Shown here piece after piece: positions 1 to 9,017 of a stretch of 9,017 nt of DNA (position 1 is its first letter; each line of letters starts with the position of its first letter). Source of the stretch: a virus (Duplodnaviria; Heunggongvirae; Uroviricota; Caudoviricetes). A program made the position numbers and the translations under genes. The stretch spans positions 1 to 9,017 of the IMG/VR virus record IMGVR_UViG_2693429549_000020, one strand, 5' to 3'. The notes beneath the pieces were generated by a model that worked only from the letters and a program-made list of their open reading frames with translations, did no database searches and had not been told where the DNA came from.

Positions 1-1239
1 ATGAGCAGGGCAATTCATAGACTTAGCGACACTCTTTTACGAAAATTAAGCGGATCACCAACCACAAAAAACACCTTTTTTAATGATGGTGGCAACCTTA
101 GCGTAAGGCATTCAACCAATGGCCTGTTAACCTGGTATTTCACTTACAGGGCCGGAACTGGTAGGCAGGTATCACCGGAACGTCTGAGGCTGGGCAATTA
201 TCCCGATCTGAGCCTTAAAGCAGCCAGGGAAAAAGCGGCACAGTGTCGCGCCTGGCTGGCTGAGGGGAAAAATCCGCGCTATGAGCTTAATCGTGCTGTA
301 CAGGATACGTTAGCCCCCGTGACAGTTAAGGAAGCGCTCACTTACTGGCTTGAATCGTATGCAAAGGAAAAGCGCACTGACTACGAATCACTGAAAAGCC
401 GAATCAATAAACACATAATCAGCCAGATTGGCGCTATGCCACTGGAAAAATGCGAGCTACGGCACTGGTTGGCATGTTTTGACCAGATGGCAAAGCGAAG
501 CCCAGTATCTGCCGGATTTTTGCTACAGGTATGCAAACAGGCGCTTAAGTACTGCCGAAAACGACGATACGCAATCAGCAACGTTCTTGATGATATGGTT
601 GTCGGTGATGTGGGAAAAAAAGCAGAAGTGAGCGAGCGCGTACTAACAAACAAGGAGCTCGGGGAATTACTCCGCGTTCTGGATGACAAAATATTCCCGC
701 CGTACTACAGCGCCCTAATTCGCCTCCTGATTGTTTTTGGATGCCGTACCACCGAGCTAAGGCGCTCTGAGGTGCAGGAGTGGGATTTTAAAGAAATGCT
801 CTGGACAGTACCGAAGGAGCACAGCAAAACGAAGGTCGCCATATTCAGGCCAATACCGGAAAGCATTTTGCCGTTCGTCACGCAGCTGGTGGAGCAGAAC
901 AGACACACGGGCTTATTGCTTGGTGAACTGAAAGGACAATCTTCGGTAGCAGAGTACGGAAGAACAGCGCACAGACGAATTAATCAAGCCCCCTGGACGT
1001 TACACGATATCCGGCACACATTTACAACCATGCTGAACGATTTAGGCGTGGATCCGCATATTGTCGAGCAGCTTACAGCCCACCAGATGCCAGGGATGCA
1101 ACGAGTCTATAACCACTCCCGCTATCTTGATGCAAAACGTGATGCTCTTAATCTATGGGTAGAACGTCTCGAGCTTCTCCAGAATAATGATGAAAAAATC
1201 GTTGTTATGACCCCGCGAATTTGCACTCAAAATTCTTGA
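1..1239 (+). CDS. int: Tyrosine recombinase / phage integrase (P4-type)
   Basis: 412-aa ORF starting at the window edge (ATG at 1, so the true start could lie just upstream). N-terminus has the arm-binding pattern of P4-type integrases (LSDTLLRKL...DGGNLSVRHSTNGLLTWYFTYR...LGNYPDLSLKAAREKA). C-terminus carries the tyrosine-recombinase catalytic signature (WTLHDIRHTF ... LTAHQ ... RVYNHSRY). Stop TGA at 1237-1239. Confidence 0.9.
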   Translation: MSRAIHRLSDTLLRKLSGSPTTKNTFFNDGGNLSVRHSTNGLLTWYFTYRAGTGRQVSPERLRLGNYPDLSLKAAREKAAQCRAWLAEGKNPRYELNRAVQDTLAPVTVKEALTYWLESYAKEKRTDYESLKSRINKHIISQIGAMPLEKCELRHWLACFDQMAKRSPVSAGFLLQVCKQALKYCRKRRYAISNVLDDMVVGDVGKKAEVSERVLTNKELGELLRVLDDKIFPPYYSALIRLLIVFGCRTTELRRSEVQEWDFKEMLWTVPKEHSKTKVAIFRPIPESILPFVTQLVEQNRHTGLLLGELKGQSSVAEYGRTAHRRINQAPWTLHDIRHTFTTMLNDLGVDPHIVEQLTAHQMPGMQRVYNHSRYLDAKRDALNLWVERLELLQNNDEKIVVMTPRICTQNS

Positions 1240-1648
1240 CAAATTACGGCTGTTTTTTCTTTAAGAGATTACAGCCGTGAATAAATCGACGAATATCGAC
1301 AAAGTTCGTTGTGTTTTTATTTGTCAACCATCGAAAAAATTGAAATGTCTTCTTCTGAATTCTTATTCTCTGTTTTTTGATTGTTTCCATAATCGATGGT
1401 TTATCTGTTTGTTTTATATGTGATAATTCAAGCAAAGTGCCAAATGACGACATTTTTTGTTGCGTCTCTTAAAAACTCGTGACACGATTTTAAACACTAA
1501 CGAGCTTCTACGAACCTTAGCGAACAAAGCCTTTAGCAAGGTTGTGTTTTTAATTTAAGAGGTGAAAAAGAATCTAAGTAATATCCGATCTCATATATCT
1601 ACAGCTAAGAGAAAAGTTTATATACGTAATTTTTATGTAGGTTTTTGT
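1240..1648. promoter_or_regulatory. AT-rich int-alpA intergenic region with inverted repeats; probable alpA promoter/control region
   Basis: About 400 bp of AT-rich non-coding sequence. Inverted repeat ACGGCTGT (1246-1253) / ACAGCCGT (1271-1278) with a 17-nt T-rich spacer just after the int stop. Palindrome TCGTGACACGA (1477-1487). A TTGACA hexamer (1236-1241) overlaps the int stop. Promoter positions are not resolved. Confidence 0.3.
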
Positions 1649-1858
1649 ATGCGTGAAATAAATGAAGATCGCGTAATCCGTGAGGATGAATGTCGTAAGT
1701 TAACTGGAGTGTGCCGCACTACACGCTACGAACTGGAGAAAAAAGGGCGCTTTCCGTCACGTCTTAATCTGGGCGGTCGTTCTGTAGGGTGGCTGCTGTC
1801 CGAGGTTATGGAATGGGTTAAAAGCCGGGATCGCATTAATTCAGGCAAGGCAGCGTAA
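1649..1858 (+). CDS. alpA: AlpA-family phage transcriptional regulator (MerR-like HTH, excisionase-like)
   Basis: ATG at 1649 in the frame of ORF 1562..1858 gives a 69-aa product MREINEDRVIREDECRKLTGVCRTTRYELEKKGRFPSRLNLGGRSVGWLLSEVMEWVKSR, which fits the AlpA/Phage_AlpA pattern as I recall it. The GTG at 1562 is rejected as the start because it sits inside the SD-like AAGAGGTG itself. Confidence 0.85.
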   Translation: MREINEDRVIREDECRKLTGVCRTTRYELEKKGRFPSRLNLGGRSVGWLLSEVMEWVKSRDRINSGKAA

Positions 1859-6796: not shown

Positions 6797-6894
6797 CTGA
6801 ATCTGATTAATCTGTTTTTATGATAGAAATATATTTATCTACCACTTTTATCGATCAATAATGTGCACAGTTTAGTCAGTAAGAGGAAGTTACT

Positions 6895-7104
6895 GTGAGT
6901 TGTATTAATGACCTGAACACGGGCGATATCAGGGGTGGTTCCGTTCATCTGGATGCGCAGACCGTTATGCGCCTTAAGCAGTACAGGATCGACCATATAA
7001 ATCATCATCCTGACCAACCATTACCAGGTGTGGCGCAGATTGTCAGACACGCAGTTAACGCGTGGCTTGATAAGAATAGTTTTGCATCTGGGGGTGAGCA
7101 ATGA
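6895..7104 (+). CDS. Small RHH-like protein (69 aa), coupled to the protease-capsid gene
   Basis: GTG start at 6895 with SD AAGAGGA 7 nt upstream. The product has a beta/helix/helix-like layout (GGSVHLDAQTVMRLKQYRIDH ... GVAQIVRHAVNAWLDK). Its stop overlaps the next start (ATGA at 7101-7104). A candidate -10 TATGAT at 6819-6824 lies upstream. Confidence 0.5.
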   Translation: MSCINDLNTGDIRGGSVHLDAQTVMRLKQYRIDHINHHPDQPLPGVAQIVRHAVNAWLDKNSFASGGEQ

Positions 7105-9017
7105 ATCGCTGGTACACCATTAAAGCGGCGGATGTTCGCGGAACGGCGGAGATATCCATCTATGAGGAAATTGGTGGCTTTGGTATTACCGCGAAGCAGT
7201 TCACGGAAGACCTGAAAGCCCTTGGCGATGTTTCACATATCAATCTGAGGATCCATTCACCAGGTGGCGACGTGTTTGAAGGTATCGCCATCTATAACCT
7301 GCTACGGAATCATCCGGCAGACATTACGGTTTATATCGATGGCGTGGCGGCTTCAATGGCTTCGGTCGTCGCAATGGCTGGCGATCGCGTTGTTATGCCG
7401 GAGAACGCCATGATGATGATCCATAAGCCGTGGGGTATCTCTGGCGGAAATGCTGGCGATATGCGTGATTATGCTGATTTGCTGGATAAGGTGGAAACCG
7501 TGTTAATCCCTGCTTATGCCAGAAAAACGGGCAAATCAGCACAGGAAATTGCCACCATGCTGGAAGATGAAACCTGGATGGATGGGAAAGAATGCCTTAA
7601 GCACGGTTTTGCTGATGAATTGTTGCCATCTGTCAGAGCAATGGCGCGAATTGAATCGAAACGTACAGGAGATTTTTTACATATGCCGGAAACCATTAAG
7701 GGAATGATTACCCCGCCGAAATCACAGGCAAAAAACACCATTACAGGCGACCAGGAGCGCATTAACGGCATTAAAGAAATTTTTAGCGTGTTCGGCAACC
7801 AGTACGACGGGATCAAAATGTCGTGCCTTGAAGATGCGTCCTGTACGCTGGAAATGGCCCGTGAACGCCTGCTTAACGAAATGGGTAAGAACCACACACC
7901 AACCAATAAAAATATTCCGTCTCATATCTATGCCGGAAACGGGAACATAACAGGCGATGCGATTCGCCAAGGGCTTTATTCCCGTCTTGGGTATGAGCGT
8001 CCTGAGCGGGGAAATCCTTACGCGATGATGAGCCTTTTTGAAATGGCCCAGGCATCACTAACTGATCGTGGTATCACTGTGAACGGTTTTATTAATCGCT
8101 CGCAGGTTGTTAATGCGGCTTTTACACACAGCAGCAGCGATTTTTCTCATATTCTGGCTGGTGGGGCTGAAAAATCTGTACTGAAAGGCTGGCAGGACAG
8201 CGGCGAAACGTTCCAGAAATGGACGCGTACCGGATCGCTTTCAAACTTTCATGAAGCAAAGCGCGTTGGTCTGAATGGTTTTTCAAAGCTGGATAAAGTA
8301 CCGGAAGGCGCGGAATATAAATACATCACCACCAGCGATAAAGGTGTGCCTATTGCGCTGGCCACGTACGGGAATATTTTTTCCGTTACCCGTCAGGCCA
8401 TTATCAACGATGACCTGACCCAGTTAACTACAATCCCCATGGCGATGGGGCGTGCAGCCGCCAGAACAGTAGGTAATCTGGTGTATCTCCTGTTAACCGG
8501 CAATGGCAAATTCACGGATGGTAAGGCGCTATTCCATGCCGATCATAAAAATCTTATTGCGAAGGATATGGACATGGAGGGGCTTAACGAAGCCCGTAAG
8601 CTGATGCGCCTCCAGGAGGACGCTAACGGTGATTCGCTGAATATTACCCCCGCATTTGTCCTGGTCCCCGCCGCGCTGGAGTCTGCCGCACATCGCGCCA
8701 TTCTGTCATCGTCATCACTCTTTCCGGTTGATGGTGAGGGCACTATCAATCAGAACCCCGGCATCATTAACGTGGTGAAAGATATGGCAGAAGTAATTGT
8801 TGAGCCACGTCTTGATAAGGCCAATAGCAAGGAATGGTATGTAGCCGCAGCTAAGGGGATGGACACGATAGAGGTCGCTTATCTTGACGGTATTGATACG
8901 CCATATCTTGAGGAGCAGGAGGGTTTTACTGTTGATGGTGTCGCATGGAAGGTGCGCATTGATGCAGGTGTCGCGGCCCTCGACTATCGCGGATTACTGA
9001 AATCGAGTGGAGCATGA
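7101..9017 (+). CDS. ClpP-like prohead (head-maturation) serine protease fused to a probable major capsid protein
   Basis: 638-aa ORF ending with TGA at the window edge. The N-terminal ~190 aa match ClpP-family signatures (IHSPGGDVFEGIAIYNLL, GVAASMASVVAMAGD with the catalytic Ser, MMMIHKPWG with the catalytic His). The C-terminal ~400 aa are assigned as capsid by size and context (inference). An internal in-frame ATG at 7683 with SD CAGGAG sits at the domain boundary. Confidence 0.8.
   Translation: MNRWYTIKAADVRGTAEISIYEEIGGFGITAKQFTEDLKALGDVSHINLRIHSPGGDVFEGIAIYNLLRNHPADITVYIDGVAASMASVVAMAGDRVVMPENAMMMIHKPWGISGGNAGDMRDYADLLDKVETVLIPAYARKTGKSAQEIATMLEDETWMDGKECLKHGFADELLPSVRAMARIESKRTGDFLHMPETIKGMITPPKSQAKNTITGDQERINGIKEIFSVFGNQYDGIKMSCLEDASCTLEMARERLLNEMGKNHTPTNKNIPSHIYAGNGNITGDAIRQGLYSRLGYERPERGNPYAMMSLFEMAQASLTDRGITVNGFINRSQVVNAAFTHSSSDFSHILAGGAEKSVLKGWQDSGETFQKWTRTGSLSNFHEAKRVGLNGFSKLDKVPEGAEYKYITTSDKGVPIALATYGNIFSVTRQAIINDDLTQLTTIPMAMGRAAARTVGNLVYLLLTGNGKFTDGKALFHADHKNLIAKDMDMEGLNEARKLMRLQEDANGDSLNITPAFVLVPAALESAAHRAILSSSSLFPVDGEGTINQNPGIINVVKDMAEVIVEPRLDKANSKEWYVAAAKGMDTIEVAYLDGIDTPYLEEQEGFTVDGVAWKVRIDAGVAALDYRGLLKSSGA

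Follow-up and report, generated by a model that had tools for sequence, protein, structure and literature searches.

What kind of mobile element is contained in the virus record IMGVR_UViG_2693429549_000020, and what fills the space between its alpA gene and its replication genes? The stretch analysed here (9,017 bp, referred to below as the window) was first read from the sequence alone as the left arm of an integrated phage satellite, with an accessory stretch between alpA and the replication gene, at positions 1869–4040, where lineage-specific cargo was to be expected. We conclude with confidence that the window covers 84% of a phage-inducible chromosomal island (PICI) of Gram-negative bacteria, a member of the E. 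coli/Shigella EcCI family that its tyrosine integrase inserted at the cspD-clpS site and that is organized in the four zones of that family. The satellite reading of the original prediction stands, but the window is nearly the whole island and not its left arm, and the supposed cargo interval is a regulatory zone that includes two tandem C4 antisense RNA modules.

Identity and boundaries of the island

The window matches exactly positions 2901–11917 of contig CXAR01000022.1 of assembly GCA_001253635.1 (hereafter L004), and the same exact sequence is also present in the Logan assembly of the run ERR024607. Sources name the proteins identical to those of the window as coming from Shigella sonnei/boydii and E. 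coli; the host of the window-matching assembly is probably Shigella sonnei.

Alignment with the uninterrupted cspD-clpS region of E. coli K-12 delimits an island of 10,682 bp (L004 2734–13394): the similarity to the K-12 chromosome ends at L004 2733 and restarts at 13395. A 21-bp attachment (att) repeat, ATAGATGATAGTTATYTATCA, is found at both island junctions and only once in K-12. It includes ATGATAGTTAT, the published core of the PICIs EcCIIHE3034 and EcCI18098. In the cspD-clpS spacer, this core runs over the stop codon of yljB, and neither of its two copies is disrupted. Chromosomal genes border the island on both sides (macB-cspD-yljB to the left, clpS-clpA to the right), with neither a full prophage nor a plasmid, so that the satellite reading survives, and ORF lists together with Pfam and PHROG scans of the whole island reveal no tail, lysis, portal, large-terminase or plasmid genes.

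The att site had been placed outside of the window together with any tRNA. The former is correct, since the attL core stops 167 bp short of base 1, which is also where the integrase starts, right at the window edge as predicted. No tRNA is involved: ARAGORN detects none in the window, and the comparison with the K-12 empty site shows that the att site is not in a tRNA. Besides these 167 bp, the window misses about 1.5 kb of the island at its right end, and this remainder (L004 11918–13394) consists of a single 93-aa open reading frame (ORF) and non-coding DNA.

We also considered as att a 68-nt imperfect direct repeat (L004 2812–2879 and 13261–13328), which was rejected because the K-12 empty site places it inside the island. 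Its left copy is 89 to 22 bp left of window base 1 and its right copy is near the right end of the island; these copies are probably arm-type sites of the integrase. The repeat ends in CGGTGTAGTYAATGGTGTAGTTAATTT, which Table S1 of PMC6092414 lists for EcCIDI14 as the 'att site core', and it may be that this published assignment corresponds to an internal repeat rather than to the crossover site.

Four ordered zones have been described in Gram-negative PICIs, namely Integration, Bro, Replication and Late, of which Bro and Late are dynamic (Mageeney et al. 2023, PMC10111431). In the present island, the Integration zone consists of int and alpA, the regulatory ('Bro/immunity') zone of a leftward gene pair and two rightward modules, the Replication zone of orf75, DUF4222, the Pri-Rep helicase, an iteron origin, orf85 and the single-stranded DNA-binding protein (SSB), and the Late zone of orf69 and a ClpP-capsid fusion. 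All the elements of the predicted order (int, alpA, small regulators, RNA modules, small ORFs, primase-helicase, ori, ssb, head genes) are present, at or near the places where they had been expected, and with strong statistics. The SatelliteFinder model for PICIs has five core components: int, a regulator, pri-rep, capsid morphogenesis and the small terminase gene terS (PMC10085698). Compared with this model, as the original prediction had proposed, the island has four of the five, which makes it a 'Type B' element that SatelliteFinder still calls a PICI. It also has the size expected of a PICI (approximately 8–15 kb) and att direct repeats at a chromosomal site that is listed for PICIs.

Close relatives have been catalogued. 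Table S1 of Fillol-Salom et al. 2018 (PMC6092414) lists EcCIIHE3034 and EcCI18098 at cspD-clpS, with the core ATGATAGTTAT and a size of 10.5–10.8 kb, and Table S2 of the same study lists an island of S. sonnei Ss046, with a 412-aa integrase, at approximately 0.92 Mb. The present island has the att core, the insertion site and the 412-aa integrase reported for this group, and is similar in size, and an identical integrase protein adjoins cspD/yljB in several assemblies. The gene order of EcCIIHE3034 is the same throughout: int, alpA, a small leftward gene, an icd-like ORF, orf75, DUF4222 and pri, then ori, orf85, ssb, a small ORF, capsid genes and the 93-aa ORF. EcCIIHE3034 differs in having a lambda E-like capsid gene, a decoration protein, a 137-aa ORF and a Nu1-like small terminase, whereas the window has a ClpP-capsid fusion; in having one icd-like ORF and no C4 RNA; and in having YlcI/YnfO and a BRO-N fragment in place of the ribbon-helix-helix (RHH) protein of the window.

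The family architecture is also that of EcCICFT073, the experimental model of Gram-negative PICIs (PMC6092414, PMC6739421), which has an AlpA activator, a pri-ori region with two sets of iterons around an AT-rich core, late genes homologous to capsid genes, and lambdoid helpers. EcCICFT073 differs by its 314-aa integrase (Table S2) and its att site (ycfD-phoQ), it carries RppA, which this copy lacks, and two cos sites, and its capsid genes are similar to lambda E and D, unlike the fusion of the window. The architecture proposed for the window is a correct annotation of a catalogued PICI family at a catalogued att site, and the element is an ordinary one, of an already known kind.

Two tandem C4 modules upstream of the replication genes

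The interval 1869–4040 contains six small genes, in agreement with the five to six that had been announced along with RNA modules: orf62 and the RHH gene on the minus strand, followed by icd-1, icd-2, orf75 and the DUF4222 gene. The two icd-like genes each belong to a module (Table 1) that has the composition of the P1-type immI modules: a C4 RNA with its a' and b' segments, target sites both upstream and downstream of it, and a b2 site that covers the ribosome-binding site of icd. Both C4 RNAs score well above the Rfam gathering score of the C4 model (45), and the leader of module 1 above that of isrK (50); the leader of module 2 reaches 42.7 bits with c4-a1b1 and 37.6 bits with isrK, both under the gathering scores. 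The promoter-like site of module 2 (3080–3109) agrees with the consensus at 8 of 12 positions, which is under the threshold of the scanner, and was read from the sequence and the alignment. In module 1, a1 lies 32 nt from the -10 element, the same spacing as between P1c4 (formerly P51b) and a1 in the P1 record.

In each module, the b' segment (in the C4 hairpin loop) and the a' segment (the 3' joining segment) complement the module's own four sites perfectly, over 7–10 nt. In the leader of module 1, the sites a1 (TTAGGAC, 2667–2673) and b1 (GTTACAGG, 2683–2690) are exact complements to the loops of C4-1; in that of module 2, a1 (TTAGCAG, 3139–3145) and b1 (AAATTGG, 3153–3159) are complementary to C4-2. 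Downstream, the b2 site of module 1 overlaps the AGGAGG Shine-Dalgarno sequence of icd-1 (ATG at 2885), a layout that is the same as in the a2/b2 annotation of P1, and the b2 site of module 2 overlaps the GGGAG Shine-Dalgarno sequence of icd-2 (ATG at 3360). No such complementarity was found between module 1 and module 2. The same search carried out on P1 returns exactly the a1, b1, a2 and b2 sites of the P1 GenBank record. Seven specificities could be compared, from the window, two other PICIs, a Shiga toxin (Stx) phage, P1 and P7: a', a1 and a2 change together, and so do b', b1 and b2. This three-way covariation is strong comparative evidence that the predicted C4-target pairings are functional.

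The icd-like products are 38% (icd-1) and 46% (icd-2) identical to P1 Icd, and the WRF...E.EAR motif is kept in icd-1, whose substitutions by codon position are 7/3/13, 7/2/16 and 0/0/4. P1 Icd is reported to block FtsZ ring formation in a 2025 study (PMC11897509).

The resemblance to the immI region (c4-icd-ant) of P1 and P7 extends to the distance from promoter to a1, to the succession of a1, b1, a hairpin/terminator, C4, a2 and b2 over the icd ribosome-binding site, and to an Icd homologue whose stop codon overlaps the start of the next gene. On the contrary, the downstream genes are the antirepressor Ant in P1/P7 and the replication block here, the island has two serial modules of different specificity, and the b sites are unlike those of P1 and P7. 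No Ant, KilA or Bro domain was found, and the coupling to an antirepressor gene (ant), which belongs to P1 immI, is lacking. Module 2 most resembles the c4 regions of P7 (80.7% identity) and P1 (75.4%), and its a site, TTAGCAG, is identical to that of P7 while its b site differs. Module 1 is closest to modules of Stx-converting lambdoid phages (approximately 85%), and its a site, TTAGGAC, is that of the Stx phage P13771 while its b site differs. Conversely, the island of another relative, L002 (GCA_031665325.1), has its b site in common with P13771 but not its a site. It appears from these comparisons that the a and b recognition sites reassort independently.

The immunity region of P4, in which the CI RNA, with seqA and seqC, precedes the alpha operon, is similar in that an RNA factor comes from the leader of an operon that ends in a D5_N-type replication protein; the C4 and isrK models of Rfam detect both systems (PMC10111431), and an origin-binding C-terminal domain is common to both replication proteins. 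We have to consider that the element could be a P4-like satellite, one that would use a P2-type helper, control the size of the capsid through Sid and owe its immunity to CI RNA. Besides the CI/C4-type immunity RNA (the immunity region of P4 matches window 2761–2890 at 70.5% identity), this would be consistent with the presence of int, of an AlpA/Vis-like protein and of a D5_N helicase whose C-terminal domain matches that of P4 alpha (1ka8), and with a similar size, about 11 kb. However, the scans of the island's ORFs detected no homologue of psu, delta, sid or epsilon, the gene order is the PICI pattern (int inward, alpA, replication, late), and the HK97-type protease-capsid fusion has its relatives among lambdoid phages and not in P2. 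P4 also works by a different mechanism, premature transcription termination rather than a block of the icd ribosome-binding site, and the literature keeps the two families apart (PMC6092414). We consider a P4-like satellite very improbable, and keep the assignment to the PICIs.

That the Rfam models of C4 and isrK match several Gram-negative PICIs has been reported, by analogy with CI/seqA of P4 (PMC10111431). A single paper of the searchable literature names isrK along with PICIs, and only briefly. In the same literature we found no description of a tandem anatomy with two specificities, of its coupling to a replication operon, or of the way in which P7 and Stx phages have a and b sites in common with it in varying combinations. 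The tandem heteroimmune anatomy is a modest and testable addition, and not a new kind of system.

Table 1. Features of the window, with their coordinates and the matches or motifs by which they were recognized
Feature	Position	Strand	Evidence and remarks
Tyrosine integrase, 412 aa	1–1239	+	Pfam Phage_integrase 6.5e-18, Arm-DNA-bind_3 9.5e-17; reads inward from the left end of the island
int-alpA spacer, AT-rich	1240–1648	+	Composition profile, 34–38% GC
alpA, 69 aa	1649–1858	+	Pfam Phage_AlpA 2.2e-16; ORF open from GTG 1562
Intrinsic terminator of the RHH-orf62 pair	1886–1905	-	8-bp stem with 7 GC pairs, T run; just past the orf62 stop
orf62, small leftward gene, YlcI/YnfO-related cluster	1970–2158	-	phrog_21027 3e-16
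RHH (Arc/HicB-like) protein, 63 aa	2201–2392	-	PHROG Arc-like repressor 5.1e-07; divergent from the rightward operon
Terminator-like hairpin upstream of the RHH gene	2462–2498	-	15-bp stem and T run
Module 1 promoter-like site	2606–2635	+	TTGATC-18-TATGAT
Module 1 leader, isrK-like	2642–2718	+	Rfam isrK 63.2 bits
Module 1 intrinsic terminator, in the leader	2697–2713	+	Terminator scan
C4 antisense RNA 1	2743–2830	+	Rfam C4 79.2 bits, E 1e-14; b' 2786–2795, a' 2802–2808
Module 1 downstream targets	2835–2874	+	a2 TTAGGAC 2835–2841; b2 CGTTACAGGA 2865–2874
icd-like ORF 1 (icd-1), 62 aa	2885–3073	+	NCBIfam phage_ICD_like (NF033153) 3.7e-17
Module 2 promoter-like site and leader	3080–3194	+	TTGCAC-18-TATTCT
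C4 antisense RNA 2	3220–3308	+	Rfam C4 74 bits, E 2.1e-13; b' 3264–3272, a' 3279–3285
Module 2 downstream targets	3310–3350	+	a2 TTAGCAG 3310–3316; b2 AAATTGG(GA) 3342–3350
icd-like ORF 2 (icd-2), 56 aa	3360–3530	+	NCBIfam phage_ICD_like (NF033153) 3.5e-15
orf75, conserved small gene, first of the replication block	3523–3750	+	phrog_2196 2.2e-22
DUF4222 protein, 95 aa	3756–4043	+	Pfam DUF4222 1.1e-25
Pri-Rep protein, 582 aa	4040–5788	+	Pfam D5_N 2e-15, DUF5906 5.3e-10, Pox_D5 8.2e-05
Replication origin	5803–6020		Eight TGTCTACM iterons in two sets around an AT-rich core (5820–5858)
orf85, conserved	6078–6335	+	phrog_1231 8.7e-48; overlaps the ssb start
SSB	6332–6754	+	Pfam SSB 4.2e-16
orf69, first Late-zone gene	6895–7104	+	phrog_4934 4.1e-31; overlaps the start of the capsid gene
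ClpP-like prohead protease/scaffold/HK97-fold major capsid fusion, 638 aa	7101–9017	+	NCBIfam NF045540 2.6e-272, 905 bits

A mosaic regulatory zone

The leftward genes face the two modules. The RHH protein matches HicB of Pfam with an E-value of 4.9e-4, just under the family cut-off, and some sources name it 'repressor' or 'HicB family antitoxin'; its gene has a Shine-Dalgarno sequence (AGGTGA) 4 nt before a TTG start. From its position and its fold family, it may be guessed that this putative repressor acts on the divergent promoter region. Between the RHH start and the rightward promoter region (window 2393–2440), a 10-mer, AGGTGACCAC in minus-strand reading, occurs twice, 35 bp apart. These repeats are a possible operator for the RHH protein, and the proximal copy also serves as the Shine-Dalgarno sequence of the RHH gene. 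The 90% cluster to which the orf62 product belongs contains 101-aa proteins that sources assign to the YlcI/YnfO family; orf62 has no match in PADLOC or Pfam. The possibility that the RHH protein and its neighbor form a toxin-antitoxin pair was rejected: orf62 matches no toxin family, and the neighbor in L002 is a 119-aa SWIM-finger protein.

A mosaic breakpoint (approximately 2484) falls at the hairpin that precedes the RHH gene, the similarity to the relatives L008 and L010 restarting at 2484. No gene reads into this hairpin, which might shield the RHH gene against leftward transcription or act as the terminator of a small RNA that is not annotated.

Automatic annotations of this region differ from ours. 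On the plus strand of window 1869–3530, and also in L004, L008, L010 and L012, gene callers place ORFs of 150–415 aa over the C4 RNAs and the leaders, with labels such as 'Phage_ASH', 'ash family' or 'Icd-like'. The substitutions are of the coding type only in the last 56–62 codons of these overlong ORFs, which are the icd-like ORFs. The 210-aa plus-strand ORF at 1869–2501 was rejected as a gene since its substitutions are even over codon positions (7/7/9, 22/32/37 and 8/7/10) and accompanied by indels. For the same reasons, we rejected the idea that the long plus-strand ORFs (210, 199 and 168 aa) are similar to the eta gene of P4: unlike in P4, the counterpart here shows no coding signal. The minus-strand genes, on the other hand, are taken as real, because of their PHROG families and of the terminator found in the same region.

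What of the cargo that had been expected here, for helper interference, anti-defence or defence? No small ORF of interval 1869–4040 has a match among the PADLOC models; the sole PADLOC match is that of the helicase with mad3, and it is marginal (9.8e-4). There is no positive evidence of defence, anti-defence or interference cargo in this interval, whose content is regulatory. The genes orf75 and DUF4222, which are also part of it, are core genes rather than cargo, since they are present in all the close relatives that were examined.

The idea of an accessory stretch is correct in another respect, in that this zone is the most recombinogenic of the island. Comparing the window to its relatives with BLAST locates mosaic breakpoints near 1977, 2201–2229, 2484, 3056/3497 and 6795, and across relatives the interval 1869–4040 is the most variable and mosaic part of the island. 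The relatives have zero, one or two C4 modules, and their leftward genes vary as well (RHH, YlcI/YnfO, a SWIM-finger protein, a BRO-N fragment). Considering the 5,426 complete E. coli genomes, and counting those that cover at least 80% of a given block, we found the replication block (3523–6754) in 347 genomes, the late block (6800–9017) in 184, the whole window (1–9017) in 23, the tandem RNA block (2600–3540) in 21 and the alpA-proximal block (1859–2600) in none. A query with the primase on the genome collection returned only three loci, too few to define a species range. Variation also affects the late genes, islands with the same integrase and left end having either the ClpP-capsid fusion or lambda E/D-like capsid genes, and the same modules are found at several att sites, a sign of activity in relatives.

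Two of the relatives differ from the present island in their state. L002 contains two related islands in direct tandem (3086–12936 and 13743–21917), in the allantoin/glycerate kinase region. They have a different att site and a different integrase, and in their late and replication blocks they match the window at 98.7% identity; this tandem double insertion suggests that the integrase has been recently active in relatives. L005 4064–8636 (GCA_901482675.2) is a sister island, 98% identical to window 1878–4770, and a decaying copy, whose primase gene is split by two insertion sequences (IS; DDE_Tnp_1 and IS110-type). In E. coli MS 200-1 (L001), two CRISPR-DR4 repeat matches (27590–27677), which are unrelated, lie downstream of clpA beside a second integrase-bearing island.

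Integration and replication genes

Substitutions relative to relatives show an excess at the third codon position in integrase, icd-1, DUF4222, pri, ssb and the capsid gene. By codon position they amount to 1/3/24 and 53/35/141 in integrase, 1/0/5 and 10/6/25 in alpA, 4/4/11 and 4/2/13 in DUF4222, and 8/3/12 in orf69, the first gene of the Late zone; a 60-aa ORF antisense to orf69 (7/2/3) was rejected as not coding. The start of alpA is likely at 1649, RefSeq annotating this 210-bp version in relatives. In the int-alpA spacer, a promoter-like site (1340–1369, TTGAAA-18-TATTCT) is a candidate for PalpA, the helper-responsive promoter of alpA, by analogy with EcCICFT073 (PMC6092414).

The genes from module 2 to the helicase are tightly packed: the icd-2 stop overlaps the ATG of orf75 (...CC ATG CA TGA), orf75 and DUF4222 are separated by 5 nt, and the DUF4222 stop overlaps the start of the replication gene (ATGA). 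Judging from these gene overlaps, module 2 is predicted to be translationally coupled to orf75, DUF4222 and the replication gene. The domain matches of the Pri-Rep protein predict a D5_N domain, a superfamily 3 helicase (DUF5906) and a C-terminal winged-helix origin-binding domain, as in P4 alpha, and in the PDB its helicase part matches 7ola (1.2e-14) and its end 1ka8, the C-terminal domain of P4 alpha (6.8e-06). The origin that follows has the organization described for Gram-negative PICIs, just 3' of pri-rep and with two iteron sets flanking an AT-rich region (PMC6092414). Eight TGTCTACM iterons were counted where 0.28 are expected, and none of 200 shuffled sequences reached eight.

The Late zone, packaging, and the state of the island

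The capsid fusion matches Phage_capsid_4 (2.5e-53) and CLP_protease (9.8e-36) of Pfam. Its closest phage homologues are lambdoid (Stx phages, mEp043, mEp213, VT1-Sakai), with 57% amino acid identity over the full length, and several of these phages carry C4 modules upstream of an antirepressor. Judging from this homology, lambdoid phages whose heads are made of ClpP-capsid fusions are obvious candidates for the role of helper. The stop codon of the capsid gene is followed by a strong terminator hairpin, GGGCGGCGAAAGCCGCC, and a T run (L004 11918–12170, just right of the window).

That the capsid fusion and C4 module 1 have homologues in lambdoid Stx phages could mean that the element is not a satellite but a piece of a defective lambdoid prophage. 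We find this highly improbable: the homology to phages is distant (57% for the capsid protein, and DNA similarity over only about 280 bp), the integrase reads toward the interior of the island with alpA coming next, genes for CI/Cro, Q, lysis or tails are absent, and many genomes contain, at several different sites, the same compact unit of 10.5–10.8 kb cleanly delimited by att. The presence of its own prohead protease-scaffold-major capsid polyprotein might also suggest a capsid-forming PICI, which makes its own heads and steals only tails. There is hardly any chance that this is the case here, since the delimited 10.7-kb island has no genes for a portal, a large or a small terminase, or a head-tail adaptor/connector, and these are the genes that define capsid-forming PICIs in SatelliteFinder.

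The assignment to the Gram-negative PICIs that we retain has itself to be weighed against several observations. The transcription of these islands is described as rightward only (PMC6092414); all the large genes of the window are indeed rightward, but the two small leftward genes have their own terminator and PHROG families. The leftward pair is a small departure from the published description. No primase catalytic domain was detected in residues 1–150 of Pri, for which 'primase' is only a family label. EcCIIHE3034 and the island of MS 200-1 have an icd-like ORF but no C4 RNA, and since this is the case in some close relatives, C4 control is not universal in the family. Regarding packaging, the small-terminase/Rpp-like gene (DUF1441, phrog_141 terminase small subunit), the fifth component of the PICI model, is absent, and the right end of the island yielded no lambda-type cosN; the island may package poorly or differently, or by another route.

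The last two observations raise the question of whether the island is a decayed remnant, which would have lost its packaging-redirection gene (terS/Rpp-like), would no longer be mobilisable and would only persist vertically. The missing gene is present in L001, L002 and L006, between the capsid gene and the 93-aa ORF (it is Nu1-like in EcCIIHE3034), and the deletion is exact (L004 12148/12164 versus L002 12148–12654). In these relatives, the DUF1441/Rpp-like protein has no PDB match; it is terS-like only by PHROG, and its equivalence to RppA/C is unproven. The sister island L005, whose primase gene is interrupted by IS elements, has the identical deletion. On the contrary, all the other genes of the present island are intact, full-length ORFs with substitutions like those left by purifying selection, and both att cores are preserved. 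Moreover, the terS-less late zone occurs at two different att sites (L004 and L005), which implies movement, and variants with four of the five components are frequent and sometimes experimentally mobile according to SatelliteFinder (PMC10085698). We regard the remnant as unlikely, though with a chance that is not negligible.

Proposed working and implications

A working scheme can be drawn from what was observed, namely which parts are present and in what order, where att bounds the island, how the RNAs complement their targets and which genes overlap; induction, repression and packaging are modelled on EcCICFT073, P1 immI and P4. In the resting state, each C4 RNA would pair with its own a2 and b2 sites and occlude the ribosome-binding site of icd. 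The block of icd would then turn off orf75, DUF4222 and pri, by translational coupling and polarity, and the island would be silent, in the manner of the CI RNA of P4 or the C4 RNA of P1. A lambdoid helper phage would raise the expression of alpA, and AlpA would activate the transcription of the island and its excision. In EcCICFT073, over-expression of AlpA alone induces replication, for which pri and int of the island are required (PMC6092414). Read-through transcripts from upstream, or extra copies of the leaders with their a1 and b1 sites, may overcome the C4 locks; Pri-Rep would then bind the iterons and the island circle would be replicated with the island's own SSB. Last, the DNA of the island would be packaged with helper virion proteins, and its own protease-capsid protein would join the assembly of the head.

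A more speculative proposal, to which we give a rather low probability, is that the tandem C4 RNAs are the 'missing repressor' of this lineage of Gram-negative PICIs: two autonomous locks of different specificity, both of which would have to be opened before the replication operon is translated. The a and b sites appear in changing combinations across PICIs, Stx-type lambdoid phages and P1/P7, so that the immunity RNAs of a satellite may be read or jammed by a resident phage, and the reverse.

For the annotation of these islands, the ash/Icd-like labels point to a recurrent error, in which gene callers put ORFs of 150–415 aa over C4 RNAs, leaders and short icd ORFs. For their biology, the zone between alpA and the replication genes is, in this lineage, a modular RNA-immunity region and not cargo, and its anatomy is complete enough to design direct tests of how Gram-negative PICIs are silenced. 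If satellites and phages do act on each other's immunity RNAs, this would provide an RNA-level channel for sensing the helper, or for interfering with it.

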